From: Massalongia carnosa
Lineage: Eukaryota
Direction: 5' to 3'
Assembly: GCA_965645245.1 (NCBI GenBank)
Contig: OZ287085.1
Coordinates: 62,001 to 126,000, forward strand
DNA length: 64,000 nt
How positions within the stretch are numbered: position 1 is the stretch's first letter; each line of letters opens with the position of its first letter. The notes under the pieces are model-generated. The model worked only from the letters and a program-made list of their open reading frames with translations. It had not been told where the DNA came from and made no database searches. Shown piece after piece: positions 4,008 through 54,186 of this stretch. Position numbers and translations under genes: made by a program.

Positions 4008-5132
4008 ATGCCTTCCCATCGCCCTCAAAGAATCACCAAGCCTTCCGCCCGCTCCGGAAACACCCCCGGGCCTGGTCAACGTCCCACTCGTTCCACCCGA
4101 CCCCCTAGTGGAGGGGCCATAGTTCCAGAAACACAGCATCCTCCGAACACTCAAGGCTCGGAAGGAACACTTCCGGGCGATGTGATAGACGTCCACCGAA
4201 CACCGGAACCAACCCCGGACCTGCTGTTGGACCTCAGGGCTCAGCAGGAGGCCACGGCGACAGCCCTCAGGCAGGAGGAGACCCGTCAACTTCAAAAGCA
4301 AATCGCCGACAACTTGGCGCCCATTCAGCGCATAAGGAAAGGAAACACAGTTCCCGAGGGTAGGCAGGAGGCACACACTCCCCACCCGAACCAGCTACTG
4401 CCCGCTGAAACCGAAGGTACGGATCCATGTCTCCTTCCTCTAATTATCGAGTATCCCGCCATAAACAGCATTTATTTCCGACAAATTCTAAACAACAAAT
4501 TCGATCCCATAAATATTTCCAAGCTCTGCACCGATGTAGTCTTAATCAAACCAACTGTCAAACGAGTGAACCTGGCCAAAGGATACGAGTTAATACAAGA
4601 AGAAGACGATGCGTCACCAGGAGACATCAAGGGACTACCTCACCTGATTCGCTGCCTCAGGGTGTATTGGCAGGTCTTGCTTCATTTGGCACCATCCGGA
4701 ATAAAAGACAGTCTTTGTAGGGCCTTTCAAATCTATCAGGACCGCTTGTTGTTACATTACACCATCTACACTTGGGAGTCAGTACGAGTATTTCATATAA
4801 TCTTCCACAGGGGTCGGGTGTACCAGGGAGTGAACGACCCGGCCGAATGGAGGAGAATTGACACCACCGTCGAAAACATGTACCTTACTCGACGGACACC
4901 TAACTTGTCCATGACGGGAGGTACCACCAAGCAGCACCAGGGATCAATTCCGGTAGGCGGCTCCACTGAACCAAAGCCTATGTCCTGCAATCGATACAAC
5001 GCAGGGCGGGAATGCAAGGACTGCAGGTACCCTCACGTCTGCAGTCTCTGTTTCGGCCATCACACGAAAAACAACTGCCCCAAGGCACATATCAGCAACC
5101 CAAATTTCATGTCAACAGGTAGACGAGATTGA
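4008..5132 (+). CDS. gag: Ngaro-1 Gag-like ORF1 with C-terminal Cys/His zinc fingers
   Basis: CNRYN..C..C.YPHVCSLC...H....C motif; homologous to ORF1 of the other two elements (FDPINI.KLC, YTWES). Confidence 0.85.
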   Translation: MPSHRPQRITKPSARSGNTPGPGQRPTRSTRPPSGGAIVPETQHPPNTQGSEGTLPGDVIDVHRTPEPTPDLLLDLRAQQEATATALRQEETRQLQKQIADNLAPIQRIRKGNTVPEGRQEAHTPHPNQLLPAETEGTDPCLLPLIIEYPAINSIYFRQILNNKFDPINISKLCTDVVLIKPTVKRVNLAKGYELIQEEDDASPGDIKGLPHLIRCLRVYWQVLLHLAPSGIKDSLCRAFQIYQDRLLLHYTIYTWESVRVFHIIFHRGRVYQGVNDPAEWRRIDTTVENMYLTRRTPNLSMTGGTTKQHQGSIPVGGSTEPKPMSCNRYNAGRECKDCRYPHVCSLCFGHHTKNNCPKAHISNPNFMSTGRRD

Positions 5133-6723
5133 CTAGCCGGCCCATTTGAGCATATCGCCGAAGGGTTCCCCTATCCGCTGATAGATAAATCAGCAATCGT
5201 ACCCTCAGGGCCTCTAAGAAAAGAAGGCTGGGAACTTCACCTCATGGGTCATCCGGACAAAATTTACAAACAGACCATTCACGATATAATCGTGTACGGG
5301 GCCAAAATTGGTTACACCGGCCCAGAGCAGTTCATTCTAAGCAGCAACCTGGCCTCGGCCAACGAGGCCCCAGAAATTCTAACCATGGACGTAGAGGACC
5401 AAAGGGCCAAAAACCGATTGATCGAGGTGCCCACCCTACCAGCCAAATATATATGCTCCCCCTTAGGCTTAGTCCCCAAAGCAAACGGAGGATGGCGCCG
5501 TATTCATCACCTCTCCCACCCCGAGGGTAATTCGGTGAACGACTTCATTCCCGAGGAATGGGGCGCTCTGGAATATATCACTTTCGACGAAGCCCTCGCC
5601 GGCGTCAGAAGAATGGGCAAGGACTGCGTACTGATCAAACGAGATCTAGCCGATGGCTTTCGCCACGTTCCAGTGGCGCAAAGCGATTGGTGGTTGCTGG
5701 GTTTTTGTTGGAACGGGGTTTACTAGATAGAACGCTTTCTTCCATTCGGCCTCAGGACGTCTCCCTTCTTGTTTGACTTATTCGCGAAAGGTCTGAACTG
5801 GATGATGATTAATAAAACAAATGGCGAAGTTATTCACTACTTGGACAATTTTCTCGGAATCGTTCGCGCTATTCCCGATGCGGCATCCTTCGAAATTTGT
5901 TCAGACCTTCGGCCTAAAAATCAACGAAAAATAAACAAGGCACGGTAGTCGAATTCCTGGGCATAGAGCTGGACACACACCTCATGCAGGCACGACTACC
6001 GGCCGAAAAGCTTCAGAAAGCTAAGGATCTCGTCCAATCAACATTGAATAAATCCACGATAACCAGAAACGAGCTAGACACTCTGCTGGGATTTCTGTGC
6101 TTTGCAGCCAAAGTGGTGGTACCGGGAAGAACTTTTCTCCGACGCCTTTTCAACAGCAAAATCGGGCCCGCGCGCCCATTTATTCATATCAATTCTCACA
6201 TAAAAGCTGATCTTTTATGGTGGCATCATTTCCTTCCATTATGGAACGGCATACACATTATTAGCCCTTCGAGACCCCTGCTCCGTCTCTGGACGGATGC
6301 CAGTGGGGACTTCGGAATCGGGGCATACATACTTCAAGGTGGTCAGACCACACACACATTGCCCGCTGAGCAAGTGGTTTCTGAACGTTATACCACTAGG
6401 CTCAGAGCCAAACATATCAATGAGAAGGAGATGACAGCGATTCTGCACGCCATACGGCGGTGGCTCCCCATGTGCAAGGGAATCTTCTTCTTTATTGCGA
6501 CAGCTTTGCTGTAATGTCCGGGGTCAAAAAGACCTCCATTCGGGGCGGGGCCATGCATCCCTTCCGGAATATCGTCATGATGGCGGCAATATATGACATT
6601 GAGATTGAACCACACTGGCTGTCTACCAAAGAAAATTTCTTAGCAGATTGGTTGTCCCGAGGACTATTTGGAAAAACCGCTGACAATTACCCCAACCTGC
6701 AGGGTATTTCATCGAACAAATAA
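5133..6723 (+). pseudogene. Ngaro-1 RT/RNase H, disrupted
   Basis: SPLGLVPK, RRIHHLS, LPFGLRTSP, YLDN (YLDD mutated), WTDASG, ADWLSR. TAG at 5724-5726 and frameshifts near 5900 and 6480. Confidence 0.9.
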
Positions 6724-7663
6724 CGGCGTCACTCGCCCGCGACCCTCCAGAGACTTGGTATAACGAGGTTCCGCTGGATCGCCGAGCAGCCAGATATTTA
6801 TGGTGGGGCATAGCAATTAGGACTCGAGGGCTTTACGATGCAGCCCGGAAAAGCTACACGACCCACTGTCAATTGGCAACGAATTTCCCTCCCTTTCCAG
6901 CGACAATTCGAAGCCTTTCGGCATGGATAGCCGCCCTGGCTCAGCGAGGGCTCCGCCCCAAAACCATCACAAACTATTTAGCTGGAGTACGATCGAGCCA
7001 ATTGGCCATGGGCCTAGGGGACCTGGAGGTCTTTCACCATCCAGTCCTAGACAGAATAATTGCGGGAGTAAAACGAATGCACGGTGAACCAGAAAGACGA
7101 GAAAGGCTACCAATCACACGCAACATTTTGATAAAATTGCTACGGAAACTAGACACTACTAACGAGGTCCAGGCAACACTTCATGCGGCATACAGCATCG
7201 CATTCGCCGCCTTCTTAAGAGCGGGAGAATTTACCTACAAACAGGGAGAAATACAAGACTCCAGCTTCGATTCATGGCATTTAACTAGGAAATCGGTGGA
7301 TCTATAGGCGGATCGAATAATTCTTTCCCTACCGTCATCCAAGACGGATCCTTTTCGAAGGGGTAGAAAAATTTATATCGCAGCAACAAACGACGAAGCA
7401 TGCTCGATCACCTCCATTCGGAACTTGTTTACCCGCTTCCCGAAACCAGCATCGTCCCCATTGTTCCAGGTTCAGGACAAGGCCTTCACTCGTGAATATT
7501 TAGTGCAGGCCCTACGGAGTGGCCTCCGGGCAGTTGACGTCCGAGCGAATTACTCGGGTCATTCGTTTCGACGGGGTGCAGCAACAACGGCCAAGAACTC
7601 GGGCTTGCTAGAGGAAGATATTCAGACCTTGGGCCGATGGAAATCAGACTCGTATCAATTGTA

Positions 7664-8979
7664 CAAATCGGGTCTAGGAAGTCAGCAAACACTTCGCTTA
7701 ATTTCCCCTCATCTAAATTCCCCCCTTACTTCACCCCCCCCTTTCTACATCAATTTTCATCTGATCAACGAAATGCCTTCTAAACCCAAGACGGCCAGAC
7801 GTGAACACTCATCTGAAACCATTGCTATCGTTGTAGCCCTTCATGAAGTTCACTTATCCTATGCTGAAATAGCCCGTCAAGTTCGGCTGGCCCGTTCCAC
7901 CGTAGTCACCATAGTTCATAGAGCTAAGAGACAAGCCGACGCCTCTTCCGTTCCCAAAAAACGTACTGGTCGGCCAACCAAGCTAAATGTCCGTGCCAGA
8001 CGGGCATTGATTCGCCATGTTGAGAAAAATCCACACGATAATTTGCTGGCCCTGACTACCCCTTCCAAATCGGGTCAAAAGCTCTCTCGCGTCACCGTAC
8101 GAAAATATCTGAAGCTCGGTGGCTATTTCCGTTTCAGGGCTAGAAAAAAGCCGTTTCTATCAGCACGTCACAAAGCAATCAGGCTAAAATGGGGCAAGGA
8201 GCATAAGCATTGGACGGTAGAAGATTGGGGCCGAGTTATATGGACAGATGAAGCTATGTTTGAAACTGGTTTAGACACTCGCTCGTGCTACGTCACGAGA
8301 CGAAAAGGCACGGCCATGGAGTCTAGATATCTGAAGCCTACATTCAAAAGCGGACGAAGCACTGTGGGCATCTGGGCTAGCATACGATTGGGTGAAAAAG
8401 GCCCTATGCTCGTTTTGAATAAGGGGAGACGAATGAATTCAGATATCTACATTGACGAGGTGCTACGGCCTTTAGGGCTCTCGTTTTATGAAGCATGCTT
8501 GACTAGGCGAGGTTTGACGATCTGGATGGATGACGGAGCCAGCTATCATACTTCGAAAAAGGTGATTGATTGGGGAAGACGAAACGGGCTTTTACGCATG
8601 GATTGGCCACCTCAGTCACCCGATTTGAATCCCATTGAGAATCTCTGGCGTATTATCAAAATACGGGTCAGTGCCCGTCGTCACCAAATCCATACAATTG
8701 AGGCCATGGAGCAGGCTATTCGGGAGGAATGGGAGCTGTTGACTGAGGAGGACTTCAGACGGTGCATTGAGAGCATGCCTGAGCGTATTCGCTTTCTTAT
8801 TAAGGCTAAAGGGGGTTCTATTAAATACTGATAACTTAATCTTCTTCAGAATACAGTATTTGACGAAATATGTAGGTTTCAAAGCATCAAGTTGGAAATT
8901 GATTGATTGGGGTGATTTTCATCATTAGGGGTGAGGGGTAAAATGGGGGTGGAACGCGGTCACTTCCTAGACCCGACTG
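7664..8979 (+). mobile_element. Tc1/mariner DNA transposon
   Basis: TA TSD (7662-7663, 8980-8981). TIR core TCGGGTCTAGGAAGT / ACTTCCTAGACCCGA. Confidence 0.93.
7773..8831 (+). CDS. Tc1-family DDE transposase
   Basis: N-terminal HTH, then VIWTDE, MDDGASYH and WPPQSPDLNPIENLW motifs; uninterrupted ORF. Confidence 0.92.
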   Translation: MPSKPKTARREHSSETIAIVVALHEVHLSYAEIARQVRLARSTVVTIVHRAKRQADASSVPKKRTGRPTKLNVRARRALIRHVEKNPHDNLLALTTPSKSGQKLSRVTVRKYLKLGGYFRFRARKKPFLSARHKAIRLKWGKEHKHWTVEDWGRVIWTDEAMFETGLDTRSCYVTRRKGTAMESRYLKPTFKSGRSTVGIWASIRLGEKGPMLVLNKGRRMNSDIYIDEVLRPLGLSFYEACLTRRGLTIWMDDGASYHTSKKVIDWGRRNGLLRMDWPPQSPDLNPIENLWRIIKIRVSARRHQIHTIEAMEQAIREEWELLTEEDFRRCIESMPERIRFLIKAKGGSIKY

Positions 8980-10238
8980 TACACTCAGACACACCCGGAC
9001 CAATTAATAGCGACCTCCCTTCGTTTTCAACGACCTCCCGCCACGTTCCGAACAGCACCACCGTAGGTGGGCCATTCTCTGCTTGGGGTTGGGAGTTTTT
9101 CCCCTCACTGCTGCCAAAACAAAGCCATTATAGGAGGGGCCCTCAGCAAAACTGAGCGCCAGCAGGGCAGCAGCGAGGGGAGAGTTGCCCAAACATAGAT
9201 AGAAATTATATATATGTTCAGCTGACACGATGGAGCCCGCGAATTACTATATATCTTCAAAGAAATCGTATCGCGTATCAGCACTTCAGTGTGGAATACG
9301 TTCAAGTTAATGGTTTTATGCATAGGACTCTGATCGTGAATACTGCTTTCCGGCAGACACGCTCACAATTAAGGTGTTGATTCATATTAGGCTTAAAGTG
9401 GAGATGAAGTCTTGTCTAATCTTCATGTACATAGCTCGTTCAGCAGATCATTGTCTCATTTCGTCGTAATCATCATTATCATCACTCATGCGAGTCATGA
9501 TGTTATTCTATTAGCGCTTGAACTTTTTTTCATGCAATTCATTTCTCATAGATCACACCATATACATTCATATTAACTGATAGAAGTCATTTCAGGCTAA
9601 ATCAGCAAGTCAGATTTCGATTGTCAGATTAAATGCTTCGCTACTTACCTCCACTGCTGACTCCTAAATGTTTCACCGCCTCAATCACGTTCCTCAACCC
9701 TTCCTCCCTCTTCACAAACGACCAAGACCCCTTCCTCACACTCTCCGAATCAATCCTTTCCTCCAACGCCTGATTCCGGGCCTTGATCTGCTCGTTCACG
9801 AACCGGTCTCTCACACTCCCCGTCATACTCTGAATATGTTGTGGAAGGATGAACTGGGTGGTGTGCGTGGTCCACTACTGCTAGGAGTGCAAGAGAACAA
9901 ACAAACAAGAGAAGAACAGAACAATAGAATAAGGACAATAGCTAGATTGGTCTCTGTATGCCTCGTGCCTCGTGCCTCGTGCCTGTGAACTGTATGTGTT
10001 GATGCTATGTGTTGTAGCTATTGCTACGAGCATGCTTGCTCTATAAGGAAAAGAACTATCTATAACTAAACTAAAAGAAAGACTGTCACCTGACTTCCCC
10101 GCTACCTTTACCGAGTATCAACCGAAAAGAACCAACTCCCGAACCGCTAGCAATTTGAATTTAGAGTATCACCGCTCCACCCCCCTACATAGTTCCCCTC
10201 TCTCTTTAGGTGTCGACCCCTGACACCTATCACTGTTC

Positions 10239-11111: not shown

Positions 11112-14100
11112 TCAATTTTCCACCGTCTCCATCGCATCAGCACGTCTGCTAGGAATCACTACTGCCATTGGCCAGCCAGGTGGAATCATGGACTGTCGGT
11201 CGTCCTCGTCCCCCCCATGGTTTATAGTCGGCCCCTGACTATTATGTTGCTCAGGTTCTTCTATCGGAGGTAAGTTAATATTTTGCCGAGCATGAAATGG
11301 TTTCAGTCGATTTCCTGCAAAGGTTCCAGCTAATAGGGTGCCGTCTAGTTCACATAGTTTGTAAGTTCCCTTATCAACAATTGTTTGTTGAATTTTATAT
11401 GGTCCCAACCACCTGAACGTTAGTTTGCCTGTGTGCTGATTGTCTAATTTAGTGTCGTGCAAAAGAATTAATTGACCCTCGGTGAGTTCAATTGATCTCA
11501 GATTGTTCAGAGTGTCAAAGGTCTCTTTGCCTTCCATTCTTTGTCTTTGCAGGAATAAAGCTGTCTCTTCCATGTCTTCATCCCTTCGCTGTATTTGTCT
11601 CGCACGCATAGCTAGCAATTCGTCTGTTGTATGAACTTCATTCCATGGTAATATTCTCCATGTTGGAATTTCCAGTTCAATTGGTAGAACAGCCTCATTG
11701 CCGCTATTCAGATCGAAAGGTGTGTTGCCGGTGCTAGCACGAACTGTTGTACGGTCGGCCCATAGTACTGCAGGAAGATTATCAACCCATTTGCCCATGC
11801 CTCCATTTGTCATTTTGGATAATGCTTGAACAACTGGCCGATGTCCCCGTTCTATCATGCCATTGGCTTGCGGATGATAGGCAGAAACAACTACTCTTTT
11901 GATACCATATCGATTTGCTAATTCGATAACAGCATCTTTGTTTTCTGGTCCACCATCAACAATCAGTTTTCCGAAGCACCCATGTCTGCATATAACATCT
12001 TCCCACAAGAATCTCGCGACATTCTGAGCGGTAGCTTTTCCTAGTGCTCTACCCTCGACCCATCCGGAAAAGTCATCTCTGGCCATAACAATATAGTGCT
12101 TGCCTCGACAAGCTGGCATGTGGACCACGTCTAAGCCAACCTTCTGCCACATGAAGGTAACCCATGTCGGATGAAGTGCTTCCTCGAGCCTAGTGGGGTC
12201 ACGTTTCTGACATTCCTCGCAGGACCGAACATAGCCTTTTACATCATCGTGCAATTGTTCCCACCAGTACCTGTCTGCTATGCGTCTGTATGTGCCCTCT
12301 CTGCCTCTATGTCCACTTTCGTCATGCAGCTGTTTCAATATTTCCAACTTCCGCTCATCGGAGTCTATCACTCTCCTGGAAGGTACGTTCTTGCTGTTTC
12401 GTCTATAAGGATGGCCATCTTGTACTCGATAGCGCAAGGCCTCGCTCTTAAACGCTCTAAACTCTTTGCGGTTTAGTCTAACCGGCTTTTGTAGTGATGT
12501 TAGAAATGCAGCGATTCTCTCGGACTTATCACTATATCCGGCCTTTAGCACTTTTTCGTCTGGCACCTCGTCTGCGGAGTTAACGGAAATTGGACAGGCC
12601 CTTAGTGAATTCAGTTCGGCATCTATGAAGTCGTCTATGTCTTGCTCCTGCTGTTCGGCCCGAATTTCTTCCTCAGTATGAGGTCGTCTAGACAGTCCAT
12701 CTGCTGCCGTATGTTTTCGGCCAGCAACATGTTTGACCTCGAAGTCAAACAGTCGTATCCATGCTATCCATCGGACTATCAGAGCACCAGGCAAATCGGT
12801 ACAAGCTCCATTCAATTGCGCCACTAGGACGTTGGCGTCTGTCTCCAACACAAAGTGAACTCCATATAGCCAGTGCCTTGTCTTTTTCAATGCCTTTAGA
12901 ACGCCTCGACACTCTCGCTTGGTTGCATCATATCGCTGTTCCACCTCGCTCCATACTCCGCTTTCGTACCGAATGGGGTGACGCTTGCCATCAAAGATTT
13001 GCATCAGTACAGCGCCCCATCCTTTCAAACTCGCATCCACAGCCAATATGATAAGTCCAGCTAGCTCGCTATAGTCAATGGTCTTTAGTGCTGGCGGAGA
13101 TGTCAGAGCTATCTTCAGCAAGTCCATTGCCTCGGTTTGTTCCATGCCCCATACAAAAGCAGCATCTTTCTTCAGCAGACGATATATTGGTTCAGCAACA
13201 ATGGCAAAGTCCAATATCCATATGCGATAGTACACACACACACCTATAAAAGCACGAGCGGAAGAAGCGTCGGTGCATATCGGCCACTCTAGAATTTTGA
13301 TAACCTTAGCGGTGTCCGGATGTCTACCATCGGAGTCGGTCACAAATCCTACTATCTTCAGACCGGCCATGCAAAATTGCGACTTTTCTCCGGAGATAGT
13401 GCATCCAGCCCTTTCTATGTCCGCGAGTACCCCATCTAGCCACATGAGATGTTCAAGCACGTACTTTCTGATGCCCGGTGCCACTTCTTCACCACCATAA
13501 TCAGTCTTCGGCCCCTTCACTCCGATGTCATCAAGGAAAGGTTTAGCACGGTTCGGAATGTGGTCCTGCAGTATCTTTGTCACTACCCGTACGAACTGTG
13601 CAACCGAATTGGTAGCTCCCATTGGTATAGATGTCATTCGCAATAGTCCTATTGGTGTCATGAAGGCGGTCATGTCTCGACTATGAACATCGAGTTCCAT
13701 TTGGTCATATCCTGAAAACAAGTCGATCAAGGAAGCGATGTAGCAGCCAGCAAAGTCCTCTGAGAATTCGTCTACCGAAGGTGGCAGATTTGCGTCTCGG
13801 ATGGTCACTTTGTTCATGTCTAGGGCCGCATTAATTAATCGGTACTTATTTTTCTCTTTCTTCTTCACTATGAACCATGGATTTCGATAGGGACCATGAC
13901 AAGGTTCCAACGTTCCTCGCTGCAGTCGGTCCTTCAGCATCTCTATCACCATCGGTACCAGGGCCCTTGGCAATGGGAATGATGGGGTCTGCCATGCCTC
14001 ATGTGGAATAGTGTTGATTTTACATGGTGGAGACACCTCAGGTTTGACTCTGCCCATCTCGGAAAACTCCCATGACAGCGCTGCTTCTCGGTTGTATAAC

Positions 14101-14699
14101 ATCTGGGTCAACACTTCTTTCTCAGCAGACGTCATACTGTCGCCCACTGTCATTCGCTGCAGCCGTTCCGGTGTCAATCGTGAGCCTTTGAATATTGTCG
14201 AGAACTTTGGAATTAGCCAATCAGGGAACTTTTCTGACTTTGGTAGGCCTCTCTCTTTCTCTAGCGCCTTCGCTTTCCAATCTGCTATTCCACCAGGTAT
14301 GGTGCCATCCGACTGGTCAGAATTCACTGGTCGAACCTTGACTGCCTTCCGTTTGTATGCCGTATCAACTCTCACACTACTCCGTCGCCCGAACACCCTG
14401 TTTTGATTGATCGTGTACATGTCGAATTTCCGAGAAAACCTCAGAGCCGAAAGTCCGACCGAGCCAATTGCACGCGACGGTGTGAAGGCGCGAACATAGT
14501 GGTCCATCGCCGCCTCTTCCGCACTAGTCGCTGTAGGAGTTAGGGCTATTTGATTTAATAGGCCGGGCCTGTTAAATGGAATGGAAGATTTATTCTCCGA
14601 TAGTCCAACCCTAAAACTCGACACTTTCGCTCTCTCCAGGTTTTTATTACTGCTACCAGCCATGGACCTGTTCTGCACATGGTGGCTAGCTAGTTTAAA
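11112..14699 (-). CDS. pol: Gypsy-1 Pol (RT-RNaseH-integrase), -1 frame to ORF1
   Basis: IDLFSGYDQ, FLDD, AVDAS, HDESGH..C..C, GLDVV, VDGGPE, QANGMIER and WLGPY motifs. Confidence 0.95.
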   Translation of the reverse strand, partial: FKLASHHVQNRSMAGSSNKNLERAKVSSFRVGLSENKSSIPFNRPGLLNQIALTPTATSAEEAAMDHYVRAFTPSRAIGSVGLSALRFSRKFDMYTINQNRVFGRRSSVRVDTAYKRKAVKVRPVNSDQSDGTIPGGIADWKAKALEKERGLPKSEKFPDWLIPKFSTIFKGSRLTPERLQRMTVGDSMTSAEKEVLTQMLYNREAALSWEFSEMGRVKPEVSPPCKINTIPHEAWQTPSFPLPRALVPMVIEMLKDRLQRGTLEPCHGPYRNPWFIVKKKEKNKYRLINAALDMNKVTIRDANLPPSVDEFSEDFAGCYIASLIDLFSGYDQMELDVHSRDMTAFMTPIGLLRMTSIPMGATNSVAQFVRVVTKILQDHIPNRAKPFLDDIGVKGPKTDYGGEEVAPGIRKYVLEHLMWLDGVLADIERAGCTISGEKSQFCMAGLKIVGFVTDSDGRHPDTAKVIKILEWPICTDASSARAFIGVCVYYRIWILDFAIVAEPIYRLLKKDAAFVWGMEQTEAMDLLKIALTSPPALKTIDYSELAGLIILAVDASLKGWGAVLMQIFDGKRHPIRYESGVWSEVEQRYDATKRECRGVLKALKKTRHWLYGVHFVLETDANVLVAQLNGACTDLPGALIVRWIAWIRLFDFEVKHVAGRKHTAADGLSRRPHTEEEIRAEQQEQDIDDFIDAELNSLRACPISVNSADEVPDEKVLKAGYSDKSERIAAFLTSLQKPVRLNRKEFRAFKSEALRYRVQDGHPYRRNSKNVPSRRVIDSDERKLEILKQLHDESGHRGREGTYRRIADRYWWEQLHDDVKGYVRSCEECQKRDPTRLEEALHPTWVTFMWQKVGLDVVHMPACRGKHYIVMARDDFSGWVEGRALGKATAQNVARFLWEDVICRHGCFGKLIVDGGPENKDAVIELANRYGIKRVVVSAYHPQANGMIERGHRPVVQALSKMTNGGMGKWVDNLPAVLWADRTTVRASTGNTPFDLNSGNEAVLPIELEIPTWRILPWNEVHTTDELLAMRARQIQRRDEDMEETALFLQRQRMEGKETFDTLNNLRSIELTEGQLILLHDTKLDNQHTGKLTFRWLGPYKIQQTIVDKGTYKLCELDGTLLAGTFAGNRLKPFHARQNINLPPIEEPEQHNSQGPTINHGGDEDDRQSMIPPGWPMAVVIPSRRADAMETVEN

Positions 14700-17600: not shown

Positions 17601-17746
17601 CCATCGGAGGGAAATGAGGCTACTTTTATGTCTACTCCGTGTCGTTTTGTCTCTCGGTTCCCGACGCTGGCTAATCTCCTAGCAGGAATGCGATACCGCT
17701 CAGGCCCCATGTCTGTGGGTACACTATATTTTTGCCACTGTCGCAC
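14690..17746 (-). CDS. gag: Gypsy-1 ORF1: Gag + aspartic protease (true start uncertain)
   Basis: PGTPFFQGKNVSEFL, CNYC..H....C knuckle and LLDSGAEVNVM protease motif. Confidence 0.88.
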   Translation of the reverse strand: MRQWQKYSVPTDMGPERYRIPARRLASVGNRETKRHGVDIKVASFPSDGRIAQPLHSTHSYNSYQTSYSPVDNTERESRAHCYNRQRLHTEAAPAPLHHRHFDLPPPYQTHTCPCLSYHCFEPTKQAPIGHSSAGETYTHHPVSHCHQYYCQPSSHIPTSDDKETTTSQLTKIVTNLIPLLEQLVISVRNTNEARTRTDSPAPPASRDSPSTIIPTTEGQPSHEAESTMTTPSSTSPESFGNRPAMSAGPFGFVMTMPQPGTPGTPFFQGKNVSEFLSRYEDMCEDYHVGNNEKIRRLPRYCDMLIGQTIESLPDFVERRWTQLSKVMKKEYKAGDSIQQVNSRPFLESYKDKVRTSDDDVRNFCRKFGAISKALISQEKLDIYTRNQWFMQGLPADIREELFFRRGVDFDDNVMKDFDGLVKKTLTLVEARMKYKEVMRTEKSVTDKYSALADQFDKKIVLDGHENIMNSLSPPVADSTTVSLSKSTEKTIMDLTNKFDALVLATGAQMRPANQNSQQSQQSRNRSQSPHRQSSYDGQRQQHDHQYGSDESCNYCGEKVLHDRRRDCPDFDADQRNGVIHLNEKGLLCLGPMGTYSNPIRHLPGVTQKESIRRAKMLANQFSQAGQNAEVHTVRIGEDSADDFSFDEEWDPEVTIIEHTTSINSARTENNKPAEENWKEPAKRILKRRAEREDHFAVPKAPRYGNWSPLPTSVERRNDSLDQSKPTDRASAAEPRVTFADPIEEDVEMTEAGLAGKGGGKKKPGTGVLRAPIRGEVRDAIEKIGAEEFLKIARREFNVDLIQGRYLQSLAAGTGGLTNGNIIAMLPMFKSVVNKVTRNTEAERQDGPTVKIGSIGIRDPLLRRAYTRSTPKAKVRVGDGGRYKSLLDSGAEVNVMTYDVAKREGLAMRPYPNINLISHTGHRKEFLGVCENVEVDIGGVASLNHIFVIDAADHQLVLGQPYLHQMRVGLDYRNNEVECTIHAEDGKRTAKFIATSDPGSKLHTAEDLFPENRDETLN

Positions 17747-20700: not shown

Positions 20701-21900
20701 CGTAGATAAAGCAAGCGGAGACATAAACAGAGGCTGGCTGAGAAGTAGGCGTCCATCCGACGAACCTCATCTTCGCCGAGGGACTCGCCTTTGACTGTTG
20801 AGCGTGCGGGGCCGTATGAAGAAATATTTTCCACTACTGCGTGAGCAGTGTCATCTGTAATCCGCGCCATGGCGTTCTATGCCTTATTGTCAGGATCTGT
20901 ATCCGTCAATGAATGAGCTGAGTTGAGTATAAGCGCAACGACCAGCTTTGTTTACGGTACGCCTTGAGATCGCGTCTTCAAGGACGGGAGCCACAGGCAC
21001 AGATGTAAAAGGTGATAGTTGGCCTCTCGTATGACCCCGCTCGTACGATTTATGAAATTTGCGGCGAATCTGAGGCTCATCCCGCCGTTTCCACTAAGCA
21101 TCACCTGACCTCAACCTCACACGTGCCATACTAAGCTACGTCTAGCCATAACTTACACTTCCATCATTATTACTTACTAGTTTCTTGACACGATTAGTCA
21201 TAGTCATATACCTAGTGCTAGTTCATGTGACCTCGTATTGCTTCTATTTCTAAGGTTGGCGGAAACACAGCGATCTGCACCTCGCTGGCGCCGTCACTCT
21301 CGCCGGCGCCTCTACCTAGCGCCCCCTTTCGGGCCTTGGTGCAGATCGCGGTGGATACTCCCTCTACCTCTGCGGCTGAGACCTGGAGTGGGTGGGCGGG
21401 TCAAAAACTACTATGCAGTGCTACCTCCGAATCCGAGATGATGAGGAGATGTAGGACTGCTTTGGCCCTCTATATAGCCTCCATCTCCCCCCTGTCATCC
21501 ATCCATCCCTATCCGATCCCCCGTCGTTATCCGAACCAGCTCCTGGCGGATAACCGTGCAAAACCGAAGAGGTCCGGATTTTGCATCACCTGTTGTCCCC
21601 GTCATGCGTGGAGAACCGCTGGTAGCCGATCCGCTGGTGGCCGAATCCGCTGGTAGCCGAATCCGCTGGTAGCCGAATAGCATCGGTCCCGCACTAGCTC
21701 TCGCCATAGACGAACTAGCTAGTTCATGTGACCTCGTATTGCTTCTATTTCTAAGGTTGGCGGAAACACAGCGATCTGCACCTCGCTGGCGCCGTCACTC
21801 TCGCCGGCGCCTCTACCTAGCGCCCCCTTTCGGGCCTTGGTGCAGATCGCGGTGGATACTCCCAAGCCCAAGATGGAAACGGCTCGCGCGGCGATGCTGT

Positions 21901-22916
21901 TTAGGAGGCTGAGGGAGGGTGTTGAAAACGGCGTGAGGTGGCTAAGATGTGGGATTGATGCGTTTGGATATAAAGCTTGTAGGAGTCTGACTTCCACCGG
22001 CCTAGTAATTGAATGTCGTTCTCGCTAAGACCGACTTCCTTGGCCGACGTCGCTGCACCTCTTCGGAAAGAGTGACCTGAATAATTACCTGTTATGCCTA
22101 AGCTCTTAAGCCCTGATCGCATCGCGGTGGTCAAATATTCGCGTGTGAAAGCCTTTTGTTTATAGAATAAAGGGGAGGTTGCAGGTAGTGGAAACCGGGT
22201 GATCAAATTACGAAGGGATTTTACCGCGCAGGCCTCGTCCCCTGATGCGGCTATCGTTAGCGTAATGCCTCGACGAAAGGGGTCGGTTTTGGACGCCGGC
22301 AAGGAGAGGAACAGCTTATCTGCTTCTAAGTGGACGGATTTCCTAGTTAAATGCCATGATTCGAAGCTTGGGTCTGTTAGGTCTCTGATAGTGTACGTAA
22401 ATTCGCCTGCGCGAAGAAATCCTGCGAATGCCAGACAGTATGCTGCGTGTAGAGTGGCCTGCGCGTTGTCGGTTAAGTCCAATCGTTTCACTAAACGAAG
22501 GAGTATGTTTTTCGTAATGGGCATTCGCTCTTTCTTGTCGGCTTCGCCATTCTTTCGCTTTATGCCGGCAATGATTCTATTTAGTACGGGATGGTGAAAC
22601 GTTTCTAGATCCTCAAAGCCCGTGTCGACTTGGCTGGACCGAACTCCGGCTAGATAGGCCTTGATGGTTTTGGGCTGTATTTTGTGTTCTCCTAGCATCG
22701 CTATCCAAGATGACAAAGTCTGTATGGTTGCCGGAAATGGAGTCGCGTTCATTGATATTCTGCAGTGTGTTACATAGCTTCTTCTCCCTGTGTCATACAG
22801 ACTGCGGGTTTTGACTGCCAAGCCCCACCACAGGTATCTAGCTGCTGGTCGGGATAGAGGTATTTCGCTATACCAGCTTTCGGGAGGGTCGCGTGCTAGG
22901 ATTTGAGTAGAAGTTC
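21901..22916 (-). CDS. Ngaro-2 tyrosine recombinase (probably a spliced exon)
   Basis: FLRAGE, SKTDPFRRG, HSFRRGAAT and GRWKSDSYKLY motifs. Confidence 0.93.
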
Positions 22917-24503
22917 CTGTAAATTGGGCCATTTGTTAGCGATTTTCTCCAATTTGCCCCGTGATAGGAGGTCAGCGAGCTCATTAGACTTTGTTGGGAT
23001 CCAACGTATTTCAATCCGAATATCATGAATAGCGGTCAGCATTGCGATTGCCCGAAGGGGCCGCATAGCGTTTCCACGAATAGATGATTTCCTTATTCCT
23101 GACGTGACAGCAAAGTTGTCACAGTGGAAAATCACATGGCTCCCTGCACAAAGGGGGAGCCATTTACGCAAAGCGTGTAATATCGCTGTCATTTCTTTGA
23201 CATTGATGTGAGTTGGCCTAAGCCGAGACGTGAAACGTTCAGAAAGTGCATGCTCAGCGGGCATGGTAAAACTGGTATGATCCTCCACTAGGATGTAGGC
23301 CCCAATGCCGTACCCTGATGCGTCCGTCCAAAGACGAAATTTCTCGCGAGGACGGTCTAACATGCGAATGCCATTCCATTTAGGTAAAAAAAGATGCCAC
23401 CACTGCAGGTCGGCTTTGATATTCTCGTTAATATGAATATGACGCCCACGAGACATGGCTTTTGCGTTAAAAAGACGTCGGAGGAAAGCTCTCCCTGGCA
23501 CTACCACTTTAGCTGCGAATGACAAAAATCCCACCAAGGAGTCTAATTCCTCCCTTCTAATCGATGATTTTTGCAAGGCCTGTTTGACGAGGTCTTTGGC
23601 TTTCTGCAGTTTGTCTGGTGGTAGCCGTGCTTCCATGAGCATAGTATCCAATTCAATGCCTAAGAAATCGATCACATGACCAGTTTTATTTTTCTTTTCG
23701 TTGACTGCGATTCCAAGGTCTTTGCAAAGATCGAAGAAGTACCGAGTGAAAGCTTCCGCTTCAGGATTAGTGCGGCAAACTGCCAAGAAATCATCTAGAT
23801 AATGAAGCACATCATGTTGATTTTGTAAACACATCCAATTTATCCCCTTTGCAAACAAATCGAATAGAAAAGGAGACGTGCGCAAGCCGAAAGGTAGAAA
23901 GCGCTCCATCCAGTAAACATTATCCCATTGAAATCCCAGCAACCACCAGTCGCTTTTAGCCACGGGTATATGGCGAAAGGCATCGGAGAAATCCCTTTTT
24001 ACTAATATGCACCCTTTTCCTTGTTGTCTTATTTTGGCGACAGCGTCATCGAATGTGGGGTATTCCAAGGCCCCCCATTCCTGAGGGATGAAGTCATTTA
24101 CCGACGATCCTTCAGGATGAGATAAATGATGGATACGGCGCCATGTACCATTTGATTTGGGTACGAGACCTAATGGGGATGATATGAACTTGGAGGGAAG
24201 AATATCTACTCGCGTCAATCGTCCCTTATCCCTCTGCTCCTCGACATCTTTAGTGAGTATATCAGGAGCTTCTTTTGCTGATAGTAGATTGGGGCTGAGG
24301 ATGAATTGTTCTGGGCCGGTATACCCAATCTTGGCCCCATACCGAATAATATCAAAAATAGCCTGCTTGTACACGTTATCGGGATGAGTTTCTAGGTGCT
24401 TCTTCCAGCCGGCGAGGATGAGTGGTCCTTGCTGAAGAGCCTCGAGTTTGTCCATCAGTCTGTACGGAAAACCTTCCGCGATATGGTCATATGGGCCGGC
24501 TAG
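22896..24503 (-). CDS. Ngaro-2 RT/RNase H (in frame with gag after TGA)
   Basis: LPFGLRTSP, YLDD, WTDASG, HINVKEM and ADLLSR motifs; uninterrupted. Confidence 0.94.
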   Translation of the reverse strand, partial: LAGPYDHIAEGFPYRLMDKLEALQQGPLILAGWKKHLETHPDNVYKQAIFDIIRYGAKIGYTGPEQFILSPNLLSAKEAPDILTKDVEEQRDKGRLTRVDILPSKFISSPLGLVPKSNGTWRRIHHLSHPEGSSVNDFIPQEWGALEYPTFDDAVAKIRQQGKGCILVKRDFSDAFRHIPVAKSDWWLLGFQWDNVYWMERFLPFGLRTSPFLFDLFAKGINWMCLQNQHDVLHYLDDFLAVCRTNPEAEAFTRYFFDLCKDLGIAVNEKKNKTGHVIDFLGIELDTMLMEARLPPDKLQKAKDLVKQALQKSSIRREELDSLVGFLSFAAKVVVPGRAFLRRLFNAKAMSRGRHIHINENIKADLQWWHLFLPKWNGIRMLDRPREKFRLWTDASGYGIGAYILVEDHTSFTMPAEHALSERFTSRLRPTHINVKEMTAILHALRKWLPLCAGSHVIFHCDNFAVTSGIRKSSIRGNAMRPLRAIAMLTAIHDIRIEIRWIPTKSNELADLLSRGKLEKIANKWPNLQELLLKS

Positions 24504-25580
24504 TCAATCCTTCCTATTGACCGGTGTCCAATTCGGATTGTTACGAGATTGGCTACTTGGGTTGCTATTGTTGGGGGTGTTGCCCCTGCAACTAAGTGCT
24601 GGGTGCTGTCTCCCGCAGTTGCTGCAGACGTGTTGGTATCTGCAGTCTCGGCAGTCCTTGCCTGTGTTATACCGATGGCAAGGGTAGGGCCTTGGAGTAT
24701 TGCTGTTTGAATTGGTTGTGTATCCCCCAAATCCGGTCCGGGTTTGAAGGTTGTTGAGGGGCCTATCGCGTTTAACCAGGTATGTGTTTTCCAAGTCTGG
24801 GTAGCTTTGCCTCCATTTTACGGGGTCGTCCACTCCTTGATACCACAGCGTTCTATGAAATAGCATATGAACTTGCAGCAACGACTCCCATGTGTAGGTA
24901 TTGTGAAGCAAAATCAGCCGGTCCTCGTATTTCATGAAGGCCCTTGCTAGATCTTTGAACAGACTTGGTTGTGCAAAGTGCAATACCGCTTGCCAGTATA
25001 CCAAAAGACAACGAATTAGGTGGGTGATACCCTTGATGTCGCTCAACGATGCGTCATCCTCGCCAGTAATGACCTCCAGACCTTTGCTGATATTGATAGA
25101 TTTCTTCGTAGACTTGCTCAGAGTAACGTCACTGCACATCTTGGCGATATTGATGGGGTCAAACTTATTTTCCAAAATTTGCTTGAAATACAGCTGGTTT
25201 ATGGCCGGAAAGTCACTTGTCAGAGGGAGGATTCTTGGGTCATCCGTACCTTCGCTCTGAAAGGCCTGATTGGTCTGTTGGGATCCCCCATGCTGAAATC
25301 CCGTAGGGGCCTCCTCCACCTCCAACGCGGCCTGTCTGTCGACAATTTCCTTCCTAAGCTTTCTCATTTCGGCCTGGCGCCCCTCTCGTACCAAAATGTC
25401 GCGTTGTACGCGAAGTTCAAGTAGCTCATCAGGGGTACCGGGGCGTGTGGGCCCTTCTTCCGCTGGCTGGCCGGCCTGCATTGTTGCGGAGGTCGGCTGA
25501 GAGTCAGGCACAAGGGGGGTGAGGGGGCCAGTGGGGCCGCTATCGTCGGCGGTGGACGCAGTGCGGCGGGTAGTAGGCAT
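24504..25580 (-). CDS. gag: Ngaro-2 Gag-like ORF1
   Basis: Likely ATG at 25580 (MPTTRR); FDPINIAKMC; C-terminal zinc fingers. Confidence 0.87.
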   Translation of the reverse strand: MPTTRRTASTADDSGPTGPLTPLVPDSQPTSATMQAGQPAEEGPTRPGTPDELLELRVQRDILVREGRQAEMRKLRKEIVDRQAALEVEEAPTGFQHGGSQQTNQAFQSEGTDDPRILPLTSDFPAINQLYFKQILENKFDPINIAKMCSDVTLSKSTKKSINISKGLEVITGEDDASLSDIKGITHLIRCLLVYWQAVLHFAQPSLFKDLARAFMKYEDRLILLHNTYTWESLLQVHMLFHRTLWYQGVDDPVKWRQSYPDLENTYLVKRDRPLNNLQTRTGFGGYTTNSNSNTPRPYPCHRYNTGKDCRDCRYQHVCSNCGRQHPALSCRGNTPNNSNPSSQSRNNPNWTPVNRKD

Positions 25581-26325
25581 TCTGTTTATGGAAGGGAGTA
25601 GAGCGGAGCTAGGTTTATACGTGTTTATCGAAGATGAAGAAGGGAAGAAGGATGGATTGTTCGTTAGGTTGGAAGATTGTTGGATCGGACTCAAAAACTA
25701 CTATGCAGTGCTACCTCCGAATCCGAGATGATGAGGAGATGTAGGACTGCTTTGGCCCTCTATATAGCCTCCATCTCCCCCCTGTCATCCATCCATCCCT
25801 ATCCGATCCCCCGTCGTTATCCGAACCAGCTCCTGGCGGATAACCGTGCAAAACCGAAGAGGTCCGGATTTTGCATCACCTGTTGTCCCCGTCATGCGTG
25901 GAGAACCGCTGGTAGCCGATCCGCTGGTGGCCGAATCCGCTGGTAGCCGAATCCGCTGGTAGCCGAATAGCATCGGTCCCGCACTAGCTCTCGCCATAGA
26001 CGAACTAGCTATTTCAACAATTGGTTACAATATATTACGAAGTATGACAGCGATCGGAGTTAGTACATTGCTAGAATTGGCTAAGCGGATTGGCGATAAC
26101 TGCCTCGTGATTTCGTTCCTCCGGCGTAACATTTACATGAACTTCATCGTGAAACACGCGAATAAAAGTGGCCCTCATTAGAACACCTGATATGAGCTGC
26201 AAATTTATATTTATATACATTCCGCTTTGCGCTTGTGATCGACTTGACACAAATTTTCCACACCTGTGCTTTTGTCGTCACTGCTACCACCCCGCATAGC
26301 TTGGAACGACAAGCCCAATAGCTCC

Positions 26326-50392: not shown

Positions 50393-51414
50393 TGTTTGGA
50401 GCCGGCAAATGAAGAGGGTTTACAATGTGGCGAGGTGGGAGATTGAGGAGAAGATTTTGGCACGATTCGAATGGTTTTTGGAAAGCTAGGGCTCTTAAAG
50501 ATGATGAGACGAGATATGAGCACAGGCTTGATGAATGAAAGGATGCGGAAGCTGAAGCAGGTATGAGATTGCTTGAGCAGATGGGATCAAGAGTAGGCAC
50601 GAATGTAGAGGTTTCTGATGGTGGGTCTCTTGCATGTGAAAAGGAGTTACTGTTACTTGAAAACTGATTAACATATGACAAGGTGCGAACTCTACCATGT
50701 GAAAGCAGTCGCGATTCCTTCGCCACCAACCCGATAAGGGAGGAGCCACTTGTTGTACCGTACCACCAGTCTTGATTCGCTACCCTGTACAGCAAAAACC
50801 TCAACTCACAATATTACTCCAAGCGTTTATAATTCTTGATTGATTTTTTTTAAAGATTATCTCATTTCATCTCGAGCAATTTCATTTATGAATCAGTCAG
50901 AGTTTCTTCCTGCAGCACTCTAGACAAAAGCTCTTTTCACTCTGCACGCCAATTTGATTTCGCAGATGTTACACTTCTCTTAATCAATCACTAGTTCGGC
51001 TATGCTGAGAGCTAGTGCGTCGTTAATCGAGACAGCTCCCGCTTTGATTTCGGCACCGCATGGATCTCTCGGACGGCATAGATGTCTCAGCACCATAAGG
51101 ATGTCTCAGCACGGCATAGAGATCTTAGCACCGCATCGATCCTTCGGACGACAGTTAGGTTTCGGATTTGTGTATGCCTTGCTATGGGCCGCGTTGATGG
51201 GGCATACTGGGATGGTAGAGTAGGACAAGGAGAATAGGAAGAAGATATATAAAGAGGAGGTCCCAGACGGTATCCCTCATCATCTCACATCTCAAGACAA
51301 TCAAAAAGCATAGCATTTTGATAGCACTGTTTGCAACGTTTTCTTTTCACCCAATTCAAATTTATACAACCACTACACTTAAATTTACTCTATTCAAATC
51401 CCTCTCCTCCAAAA

Positions 51415-52569
51415 ATGGCCACCCGCATCTCCAACAGAATCACCAAGCCTACCTCCCGCACACAAGGCAGCACTCTAGCCCGTACTAGAACTAGAGCTAG
51501 GGCAAATCTAGCCAACTCCAACCCAGACGTCGAAGTACCCGACTCACAAGACAGCACGGCAACCCTTCAAAGCCATCCTCAACCTTCTCCTCTTCCATCT
51601 TCAGCGTTTAATTCCTCCTCACAAGGGCCTGTTATACCGGAAACCCGTTCTCGCACCCCTGATGACATTATTGAACTTAGAGCACAACGCGAAATGTCCC
51701 GCAGGGAAGCCGAGGAAAGAGAAAGAGTAAGTCTTAGGCGGGATATCGAAACCCAACAAGCACGTGCCCGAGACGTGGTCCCTGGGCCAGTAGCCTCAGC
51801 TCAACAGCCTTCCCTATTATTTCCGACATCATTTCCACCGCATCGACCAAACTCATTGTATACAGAAGGTATGGATCCTCGTTTTGTTTCTCTTATGAAC
51901 GAATATCCCACTATCAAGCCCATATGGATAAAGCAAATCTCCGAGAATACGTTTGACCCAATCAACATTACCAAGCTATGTACCGACATCGACGGAGTTC
52001 AAACCAACTCTAGATACGTCAAACTCGGAGAAGGTCTGGAAATCGCCACGAGAGAAGAAGATGGCTCCTTAAAAGATATCAAAGGGATAGTTCATTTGAT
52101 ACGATGTCTCGGGGTATATTGGATGATACTACTACACTTTGCACACCCCGGTCTCCAGATAAACCTGATGAGAGCCTTCATGGCTTATCAGGACCATCTT
52201 CTATCATTATACGCCTTCTACACCTGGGACTCGGTTCGCATCTTTCATTTGAATTTCCACAAATCTCGAGCCTTTCGCGGGATTGACAACCCGGATGGAT
52301 GGAAAGAAATGGACCATTCCTTGGAAAGGCATCTTGTGCGGAAACCGTCCGCTTACTTTGCAAAACCGGACGATAATTCTACGGCTTTCAAAACCTCAGG
52401 CGAAAAGATTATCTGTAAGAAATACAACTATGGCAAAGACTGTCCCGTATATTGTAGATTCCAACATGTGTGTGAGAAATGTGGAAAGCAACATCGGGCG
52501 ATGGACTGTACAAATGGAAAAAATCAACCCTCTAACCCAAATTCGATGCCTCTCCCATCAAGGCAATGA
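51415..52569 (+). CDS. gag: Ngaro-3 Gag-like ORF1
   Basis: ATG 51415 (MATRISNRITKP); FDPINITKLC; C-terminal zinc fingers. Confidence 0.87.
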   Translation: MATRISNRITKPTSRTQGSTLARTRTRARANLANSNPDVEVPDSQDSTATLQSHPQPSPLPSSAFNSSSQGPVIPETRSRTPDDIIELRAQREMSRREAEERERVSLRRDIETQQARARDVVPGPVASAQQPSLLFPTSFPPHRPNSLYTEGMDPRFVSLMNEYPTIKPIWIKQISENTFDPINITKLCTDIDGVQTNSRYVKLGEGLEIATREEDGSLKDIKGIVHLIRCLGVYWMILLHFAHPGLQINLMRAFMAYQDHLLSLYAFYTWDSVRIFHLNFHKSRAFRGIDNPDGWKEMDHSLERHLVRKPSAYFAKPDDNSTAFKTSGEKIICKKYNYGKDCPVYCRFQHVCEKCGKQHRAMDCTNGKNQPSNPNSMPLPSRQ

Positions 52570-54186
52570 CTAACCGCCCCATTCTTATCCATCGCGGAGT
52601 CCTTTCCATACACCTTGACGGACAATCTAACAAAGATCCCACCGGGCCCATTGAAGAAAGAAGGCTGGGAGAAACATTTGGCCAATCACCCGGATCGCAC
52701 TTACACACAAACAATTATCGATATCATCACCTACGGTGCCAAAGTTGGTTATACAGGACCACATCAACTCATTATTAGCGATAATCTTGCCTCTGCAAAT
52801 GAGGCACCGGAAGTTCTTACCAATGACCTCGAAGAACAAATAGCTAGTAATCGGTTGGAGAAAGTCAACAACATTCCTTCTTGCTTTATATGTTCCCCAT
52901 TAGGCCTTGTACCAAAGGCTAACGGTGGTTGGCGGCGAATCCATCATCTATCGTATCCGGAGAGTAGCTCAGTCAACGACCACATACCGGAAGACTGGGG
53001 CTCCCTGGAATATACCAGCTTCGACGAAGCCATTAGGTTGATTGAGCAACGCGGGCCAGGGTGTATTCTTATTAAAAGAGACTTTGCGGACGCTTTTCGC
53101 CACATACCAGTAGCAAAAAGCGATTGGTGGTTACTAGGTTTCAAGTGGCAGGATTCCTTTTGGATGGATAAATACTTACCCTTTGGGCTGAGAACGTCGC
53201 CGTTCCTTTTTGATCTGTTCGCGAAGGGTATCAACTGGATATTGTACAACTGTGGTTGGAAAGACGCTATTCATTACTTGGATGATTTTTTAATAATAGT
53301 CAGCACCGGACCAGATGCTGAAAAGTTTGATCAAGTTTTCCACAACATTTGTAAAGATCTTGGCATGAAAATCAAGCTCGAAAAGAACAGAACTGGAACG
53401 ACTTGCGATTTCCTCGGCATTGAAATCGATACCGCGCTCATGGAAGCACGCTTGCCTTCCGAAAAGTTACTAAAAGCAAAGACCCTAGTATCGGCAGCTT
53501 TGAATAAAAAAGCCATACCCAGGAAGGAACTCGACTCTCTTCTAGGATTCTTATGCTTTGCAGCCAGAGTGGTAAAACCAGGAAGAGCCTTTCTACGCCG
53601 TCTTTTCAATGCTACGGCAAGCGTAACCTCTAAACTAATCCATCTTAACAAGGACATGAGGGCTGATCTTCTATGGTGGCATCATTTCCTACCTAAATGG
53701 AATGGCATACATCTGCTCAACCGTACTAGACATACTATGAGAATATGGACAGATGCGTCCGGCTCATATGGTATGGGCGGCTTTATCCTCAGCGAGGATC
53801 AAAATTTGCATAATATACAAGCAGCCCGGCAGGCTTTTAGCACACGCTTTACTACGCGCCTTAGGGCAAAGCATATCAACGTCAAAGAAATGACAGCAAT
53901 TCTTCAAGCTATGAAAAAGTGGCTACCTATATGCAAGGGTGGTCATTTAATCCTCTATTGTGATAGCTACGCTGTCACGAAAGGAGTGAATAAAACCTCT
54001 ATACGAGGCCAAGCAATGCATGCCCTGCGGGCAATTACAATGCTAGCTGCATTACATGATATCCAGATAGAAGCGCGATGGATATCATCCAAAGAAAATT
54101 ATATTGCTGATCTCTTGTCTAGAGGACTTTTGAAGAAACTGGCTGACAAAATCCCTCAGTTTCAGGCTCTACCCTCAGCAATATAG
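52570..54186 (+). CDS. Ngaro-3 RT/RNase H (in frame with gag after TGA)
   Basis: LPFGLRTSP, YLDD, WTDASG and ADLLSR motifs; uninterrupted. Confidence 0.94.
   Translation, partial: LTAPFLSIAESFPYTLTDNLTKIPPGPLKKEGWEKHLANHPDRTYTQTIIDIITYGAKVGYTGPHQLIISDNLASANEAPEVLTNDLEEQIASNRLEKVNNIPSCFICSPLGLVPKANGGWRRIHHLSYPESSSVNDHIPEDWGSLEYTSFDEAIRLIEQRGPGCILIKRDFADAFRHIPVAKSDWWLLGFKWQDSFWMDKYLPFGLRTSPFLFDLFAKGINWILYNCGWKDAIHYLDDFLIIVSTGPDAEKFDQVFHNICKDLGMKIKLEKNRTGTTCDFLGIEIDTALMEARLPSEKLLKAKTLVSAALNKKAIPRKELDSLLGFLCFAARVVKPGRAFLRRLFNATASVTSKLIHLNKDMRADLLWWHHFLPKWNGIHLLNRTRHTMRIWTDASGSYGMGGFILSEDQNLHNIQAARQAFSTRFTTRLRAKHINVKEMTAILQAMKKWLPICKGGHLILYCDSYAVTKGVNKTSIRGQAMHALRAITMLAALHDIQIEARWISSKENYIADLLSRGLLKKLADKIPQFQALPSAI

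Follow-up and report, generated by a model that had tools for sequence, protein, structure and literature searches.

Three related Ngaro-type retrotransposons, designated elements A, B, and C, lie in a 64,000-nt stretch of Massalongia carnosa DNA (the window, that is, the whole stretch analysed). In each of them the gag-like open reading frame (ORF), ORF1, ends in TGA followed by CTA, and pol, the ORF for reverse transcriptase and RNase H (RT/RH), continues beyond this stop in the same frame. We consider it probable that Pol is made by type II UGA-CUA readthrough as a low-level Gag-Pol fusion, which would be uncleaved if the absence of a protease holds. The in-frame architecture is conserved among the elements, the bases around the stop are constrained at the nucleotide level, and pol has no usable start of its own; in B and C, no canonical intron spans the stop. 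A tblastn search of the window with the read-through products recovered exactly these three elements. Their junctions read as follows.

5130..5145, + strand: element A junction, TGA then CTA GCC GGC CCA T
24491..24506, − strand: element B junction, TGA then CTA GCC GGC CCA T
52567..52582, + strand: element C junction, TGA then CTA ACC GCC CCA T

A preliminary description of this DNA had reported a gag stop in the context TGA-CTA(G/A) in all three elements, and we confirmed it at each site (TGACTAG at 5130-5136, + strand; TGACTAG at 24506-24500, − strand; TGACTAA at 52567-52573, + strand). RT/RH was also found in the gag frame, as had been claimed: with the TGA read as X, the Cys/His-rich ORF1 runs unbroken into the RT ORF in each element, and every gag-pol reading contains exactly one in-frame TGA. 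The three linker peptides after the stop were identical to those given earlier, and there was indeed no conserved pol ATG, the first Met being residue 17 in B, residue 199 in C, and, as judged by eye, about residue 40 in A. In element C, this first Met lies 3' of the stretch KRDFADAF, which we take to be RT motif A, so that initiation within its pol presumably could not yield an active RT. A contig from a separate sequencing run (X5) covers 52488-52758 of the element C junction with zero differences. One X7 contig, about 5% different, also spans this junction, and X8 and X9 gave only scattered pieces.

We compared the junctions at the nucleotide level among the three elements only, using 532 three-way aligned codons. 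The proteins of A, B, and C share 35–43% identity in gag, 52–66% in pol, and 62–65% in the tyrosine recombinase (YR), and the elements are, by their sequences, different families. Synonymous sites among them are saturated; third positions were invariant in 88 of the 532 codons, and two-fold codons were identical across all three elements in 17 of 80 columns with an invariant amino acid. CTA accounts for 46 of 238 Leu codons, and a single common codon was used in only 4 of the 23 invariant Leu columns. The sole run of at least four invariant third positions in the 532 codons was the five codons TGA CTA RCC GSC CCA. Third bases were kept in the four codons after the stop, though two of these four change the amino acid. 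The 18-nt segment starting at the codon before the stop (column 413; the stop is column 414) was the second most conserved in gag-pol, after the RT KSDWWLL core. The 16-mer TGACTARCCGSCCCAT, with one mismatch allowed, occurred three times in the window, each time at a junction, and was absent from each of 100 shuffles, whereas the bare hexamer TGACTA was not enriched (33 found versus 27.5 expected). The position and the common context are thus non-random, and the signal at the junction is both positional and nucleotide-level.

The sequence on either side of the stop showed the pattern of coding DNA. Invariant sites at codon positions 1, 2, and 3 numbered 11, 11, and 1 in the 27 aligned codons upstream of the stop and 14, 13, and 2 in codons +5 to +30, as compared with 93, 108, and 25 in codons +41 to +180 of the RT core. 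Because invariance at positions 1 and 2 lies far above that at position 3, both sides appear to be translated in the gag-pol frame. In A, B, and C alike, gag ends at one alignment column, eight codons after an invariant NPN. A gag protein from a public assembly, P0270, which is 47% identical over the whole gag and 51% over the searched region, also ends at this column, and so does P0269, a gag protein that comes from another assembly and is 98% identical, ending at that very residue.

The preliminary description had further called UGA-CUA(G) a known leaky-stop context, and this is borne out by the literature (PMC4207609, PMC12233894, PMC13517186). In Ustilago maydis, UGA CU suffices for efficient readthrough, which is poorer with UAG or UAA and is promoted by A at +3 and by G at +4; the effect of UGA CU was also shown in human cells (PMC4207609). 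UGA CUA G is a high-readthrough motif that gave 4–31% in human reporters, with a frequent C at +9 (PMC12233894), and UGACUA is the type II viral motif of Beier and Grimm (PMC13517186). With the stop counted as +1 to +3, elements A, B, and C all have the type II context, namely UGA, CUA at +4 to +6, and a purine at +7, and all three also have C at +9, the third base after CUA. The Sindbis virus sequence UGA CUA ACC G has the same ten bases as element C (PMC13517186). The junctions thus resemble type II readthrough as in alphavirus nsP3/nsP4, with UGA, CUA, a purine, a short linear signal, and an in-frame downstream ORF, and they also resemble the cellular UGA CUA(G) genes, among them Ustilago Tpi1, Art1, and Rpe1 and human MDH1, LDHB, AQP4, and OPRL1. 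They differ from other type II systems in that the extension is a retrotransposon RT/RNase H, whereas elsewhere it is a replicase subunit or a peroxisomal tag. In addition, conservation reaches +16, no extended stem-loop like that of alphaviruses was found downstream, and the readthrough here is predicted from sequence.

What follows is inferred from these features: that readthrough takes place, how often it does, which residue is inserted, and what becomes of the fusion. Each element would be transcribed as one genomic RNA, on which most ribosomes would terminate at the UGA of gag, giving a Gag-like protein of 358–384 aa. A minority would decode UGA with a near-cognate tRNA, owing to its weak-termination context, UGA CUA R, which in these elements lengthens to CUA RCC GSC CCA U. 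These ribosomes would stay in frame across RT/RNase H and yield a Gag-Pol protein, 894 aa long in element B and 923 aa long in element C. With no protease domain, the fusion would remain uncleaved and would be brought into the Gag assembly via its Gag part, and the leak rate would set the Gag:Pol ratio.

The elements themselves were delimited as follows.

4008..5129, + strand: element A ORF1, gag-like with a Cys/His-rich C-terminus, from the first ATG
5133..6714, + strand: element A pol (RT/RH), starting in the gag frame; decayed, with frame changes near 5930 and 6480
6708..7664, + strand: element A YR remnant, interrupted in frame by a stop at 7305-7307; reads on into an ORF with Tc1/mariner transposase domains
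21217..26011, − strand: element B, complete, 4795 bp; repeats A1 25691-26011, B1 21718-21863, A2 21401-21721, B2 21217-21362
24507..25580, − strand: element B ORF1, gag-like, 358 aa, from the first ATG
22899..24503, − strand: element B pol (RVT_1 and RT_RNaseH), 535 aa, in the gag frame; terminal TAG
21904..22932, − strand: element B YR ORF, in the −1 frame versus pol; stop-to-stop overlap of 40 nt; ATG is the second codon of the frame
50991..55931, + strand: element C, complete, 4941 bp; repeats A1 50991-51346, B1 55239-55388, A2 55387-55742, B2 55782-55931
51415..52566, + strand: element C ORF1, gag-like, 384 aa, from the first ATG
52570..54183, + strand: element C pol (RVT_1 and RT_RNaseH), 538 aa, in the gag frame; first Met at residue 199; terminal TAG
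54147..55199, + strand: element C YR frame, −1 versus pol; overlap of 40 nt; no ATG before residue 105

Pfam searches placed RVT_1 (E = 2.4e-16 in B and 8.2e-14 in C) and RT_RNaseH (E = 4.3e-10 and 9.3e-07) in pol, both 3' of the stop. The sole Pfam match of ORF3, the putative YR ORF, was a weak one to Phage_integrase (E = 0.0024 in B and 0.00046 in C), which is under the curated cut-off of 27.1 bits. No methyltransferase was matched by the gag-pol and ORF3 translations of B and C (Pfam, E ≤ 0.01), and their gag-pol translations had no Pfam match to rve, the DDE integrase, or to a protease. The split repeats measure 321 and 146 nt in B and 356 and 150 nt in C; every pair is 100% identical, and they stand in the order expected of Ngaro. 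The assignment of A, B, and C to Ngaro-type tyrosine-recombinase retrotransposons of the order DIRS is supported by RT/RH together with YR, by the lack of methyltransferase, protease, or DDE integrase matches, and by the A1...B1-A2-B2 split repeats. In this they are like described Ngaro and DIRS elements, which have a gag-like ORF1, RT/RH, YR, and A1...B1-A2-B2 repeats and no methyltransferase (PMC3783388, PMC9210276, PMC3266345). One protein relative, annotated as hypothetical, belongs to the lichen fungus Peltigera leucophlebia. The protein search with the whole fusion as query returned two matches, low-complexity gag words having swamped the candidates.

Because their repeats are 100% identical and their ORFs uninterrupted, B and C are probably recent, competent copies. 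Element A is a dead copy, in which split repeats were looked for and none was detectable. The ORF at 7308-8831 (+) encodes the C-terminal YR part of element A and then, in frame, HTH_Tnp_Tc3_2 and DDE_3; with these Tc1/mariner domains, element A was apparently truncated by a DNA transposon.

Could the TGA simply be a disabling mutation or an assembly error, the copies being dead or non-autonomous? Element A is clearly decayed: its pol changes frame twice, its YR contains a stop, and its 3' end is truncated. Another retroelement in the window has accidental in-frame stops. Yet the same stop and the same codon recur in three families with saturated synonymous sites, and the gag of a fourth relative ends there. 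B and C have identical repeats and frames that are otherwise open, the 98% identical P0269 ends at the same residue, and the independent contig has an identical junction. This explanation is therefore highly improbable, and the TGA seems to be part of a working design, since B and C are intact with identical repeats.

A further alternative, that UGA is a standard sense codon here, encoding selenocysteine or read under a variant code, would account for a frame that is open apart from one UGA. It was effectively refuted. No match at the gathering score was found in the window with Rfam, SECIS included, and fungi are without selenocysteine machinery (PMC4207609). Each gag-pol contains that single in-frame TGA, conserved Trp residues use TGG, and the YR of element C ends in TGA. 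The terminal stops vary, pol ending in TAG in B and C, and YR in TAA in B and TGA-A in C.

Several results weigh against readthrough. No stimulatory RNA structure was detected in the 141 nt from the stop (z-scores of −0.83, +0.24, and +1.29). The RNAalifold consensus was −7.68 kcal/mol with a positive covariation term, and a flanking stem had no covariation support. A downstream stem-loop or pseudoknot of the type III kind, which in Moloney murine leukemia virus (MoMLV)-like readthrough lies about 8–12 nt after the stop, was likewise absent, no explicit pseudoknot search having been made. With no signal of a downstream structure, the efficiency of readthrough would depend on the linear context alone. 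In addition, the label "gag" for ORF1 reflects its position and Cys/His motif only. ORF1 had no Pfam match, its AlphaFold model was poor (mean pLDDT of 54.3 with a five-row alignment), and Foldseek gave no hit in the PDB at E ≤ 0.001.

The relatives of pol raise a more specific objection. A profile search with the pol ORF matched 32,544 proteins at E ≤ 0.001, of which 2,545 reached E ≤ 1e-30. The search with the junction region listed 120 relatives, of which 107 could be anchored by alignment; they were compared by protein ends only. In 23 of the 107, pol starts exactly at the codon after the stop position, 22 of them with M, and the start sequence is mostly M-P-[ST]-S-L. The others start further downstream (47), extend upstream (32, with an unreliable N-terminal alignment), or have long N-terminal parts (5). 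A stricter count of 37 proteins with an EGFPY anchor gave 20 exact starts, the rest being 5 and 12. The frame is open upstream of the stop position in P0073, P0158, and P0160, and gag is fused to pol in P0257 and P0214; in some of these, the gene model may include introns that do not exist. Because relatives start pol at the codon after the stop, extend upstream, or fuse gag to pol, the UGA-CUA arrangement is, on the evidence of these proteins, not general to the family. The position of the junction seems to be conserved, and the way of crossing it seems to differ among lineages. Ancestrally, stop-restart may have operated at the junction, and elements A, B, and C might still reinitiate.

Reinitiation therefore stays a rival, because sister lineages have their pol start at the next codon. 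In this scheme, ribosomes terminate at the gag stop and restart at or just after the next codon to give free Pol, which in A, B, and C would have to happen on a non-AUG codon. The exact starts in 20 of 37 or 23 of 107 relatives, mostly with M-P-[ST]-S-L, are as stop-start would look, the position of the gag end is conserved, and free Pol suits an element without a protease. However, the codon after the stop is CTA in all three elements. By the rules of start-codon use, CTA is neither AUG nor a one-base neighbour of it. The next in-frame near-cognate start after CTA is ATC at codon +8, beyond conserved coding sequence, and no ATG occurs for 16 (B) to 198 (C) codons 3' of the stop. Reinitiation also gives no reason for TGA over other stops, for CTA over other Leu codons, or for the same frame in three of three elements. 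The M at the start of the relatives is probably ATG, but some gene callers print M for GTG or TTG, and the stop-start adjacency there is read from protein only. Taken together, we regard reinitiation in A, B, and C as unlikely.

The preliminary proposal that RT is made as Gag-Pol by readthrough was thus upheld in part: the single frame, the single TGA-CUA, and the nucleotide constraint on the four codons after the stop favour it, whereas the relatives with a pol start at the following codon do not. A separate pol start, which had been named beforehand as counter-evidence if found in homologues, seems to be present in a fraction of the relatives (23 of 107, 22 with M) and not in A, B, or C. A tentative reading, which we hold to be possible but doubtful, would accommodate both: in one Ngaro lineage, the codon after the gag stop may toggle between a start codon, with stop-restart and free Pol, and CUA behind UGA, with a readthrough fusion.

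Metagenome data added one informative locus. Of eight loci found in the metagenome scan, L001 alone (positions 1-1178, 35% pol identity) bears on the junction. In it, an H-x4-C knuckle end is followed by one codon and then by TAG CAA TCA in the pol frame, a sequence which we take to fit the type I CAR-YYA pattern. There is no Met for about 130 codons after the TAG, and a second stop lies near the contig end; L001 is a single partial, possibly decayed copy. At least four of the others, L004, L005, L006, and L008, have D[ST]GA protease-like motifs and look, by inspection of their translations, like long terminal repeat elements. L002, the sole locus with a YR match, is decayed, L003 has a stop inside pol, and L007 has an upstream stop. 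Two viral-contig scans yielded no relatives, and a scan of prokaryote genomes yielded one irrelevant locus.

Experiments on another retrotransposon also speak against simple readthrough and raise the question of a separate pol RNA. In Candida albicans Tca2, a Ty1/copia element, 300 nt around the in-frame gag UGA gave only a background readthrough of 0.3% in S. cerevisiae reporters, and the junction held a weak promoter (PMC2194720). Since the Tca2 reporters gave background only, an in-frame UGA need not mean simple readthrough. Pol might thus come from its own RNA, through an internal promoter or splicing, independently of gag translation; besides the weak promoter in Tca2, some retroviruses make Pol from a spliced RNA (PMC2194720). 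Such an origin is decidedly improbable for A, B, and C. The first 198 pol codons of element C include no ATG, and the first one present follows the putative RT motif A. A scan with GTRNGY/CTRAY/YAG, one consensus only, found no candidate intron across the stop in B and C; in element A it found two, both out of frame. Coding-type conservation abuts the stop on both sides, and with a separate RNA the shared frame and the leaky context would be needless.

Readthrough between gag and pol is classical for gammaretroviruses and has also been put forward for Tca2. Like MoMLV and Tca2, the elements have one in-frame stop between gag and pol, with the presumed purpose of a low Pol:Gag ratio. MoMLV uses UAG-GGR with an obligatory pseudoknot (PMC13517186), whereas the Ngaro elements use UGA-CUA with no predicted structure. 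Tca2 has a potential pseudoknot; the Ngaro elements have an intrinsically leaky context, no protease match, and a tyrosine recombinase instead of a DDE integrase. A further parallel, no more than an analogy, comes from the Totiviridae, in which yeast L-A makes an uncleaved Gag-Pol fusion by frameshift and victoriviruses use stop-restart. There, too, a capsid-polymerase pair without a protease is found, with sister lineages split between fusion and coupled termination-reinitiation, as may be the case here for the UGA-CUA elements and the relatives with M at the next codon; those are RNA viruses, and their fusion arises by frameshift, not readthrough.

In YR retrotransposons, the ORFs are described as separate and often overlapping, or, for Ngaro, as usually without overlaps (PMC3783388, PMC9210276, PMC3266345); one of these papers states that "ORFs frequently overlap" (PMC9210276). 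The elements here differ in their in-frame gag stop, of which the consulted portions of the three papers make no mention. The preliminary description had set readthrough against the overlapping ORFs usually drawn for such elements. This contrast held for gag and pol, which share one frame, but not for YR, which still overlaps pol in the −1 frame, so that the elements are not free of overlapping ORFs. The pol/YR overlaps lie at 22896-22935 (−), 54147-54186 (+), and about 6680-6720 (+), and are about 40 nt long. A YR start ATG is present in element B only; in the YR frame of C no ATG precedes residue 105, and the inspected part of A contains none. The overlaps contain no conserved X XXY YYZ slippery heptamer, and GCTRACAA and a pyrimidine-rich stretch ending in CAGG are common to all three. 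Expression of YR may need a frameshift or its own splice acceptor.

We found no link of Ngaro, DIRS, or tyrosine recombinase elements to readthrough in the literature searched, and an earlier remark in Goodwin & Poulter 2004, Poulter & Butler 2015, or Repbase is possible. The recoding signal and the element family are each known, and their combination is apparently undescribed. If true, tyrosine-recombinase retrotransposons would have in the UGA-CUA form their first described case of programmed readthrough, and a retrotransposon would join the short list of minimal UGA-CUA users, which holds alphaviruses and the peroxisomal isoforms of fungi and animals. Almost nothing has been described of how DIRS-order elements, which lack a protease, balance structural protein against polymerase, and the conserved UGA-CUA junction offers a concrete, testable answer for one fungal Ngaro lineage. 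There is also a consequence for annotation: gene callers divide such elements into gag and a truncated pol without ATG, or invent introns. Should a start codon occupy this spot in sister lineages, the family would offer a natural comparison of readthrough with reinitiation. If the toggle is real, a retroelement without a protease would alternate between two ways of recoding at a single, fixed junction.

The window as a whole is transposon-rich and filamentous-fungus-like, with NB-ARC/NACHT-TPR genes, a PigL_N domain, and Ty3/gypsy, Ty1/copia, and Tc1/mariner ORFs. A Ty3/gypsy-type element at 11112-17746 (−) consists of a gag-protease ORF (14690-17746) and an RT-RNaseH-integrase ORF (11112-14747). 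The two are in different frames and share 58 nt, the arrangement usual for frameshifting and in contrast to the Ngaro junction. A Ty1/copia-type element at 33803-38308 (−) reads as three ORFs in a common frame, with one stop at 36620-36622 and another at 34874-34876 between them. These stops look like decay rather than recoding, the second lying inside RVT_2. Pieces of genes resembling fungal NOD-like receptors stand between the transposons at 2-2665 (+), 32236-33579 (−), and 59103-60215 (−), and comprise NB-ARC or NACHT/NPHP3_N domains with TPR_10/TPR_12 arrays and PigL_N. Two adjacent tandem copies of TGACTA stand at 21195-21206 (−), 11 nt beyond the 3' end of element B, probably by chance. 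At 57696-57947 (+), about 1.8 kb downstream of element C, a 126-nt unit is present as a tandem pair whose copies are 90% alike.

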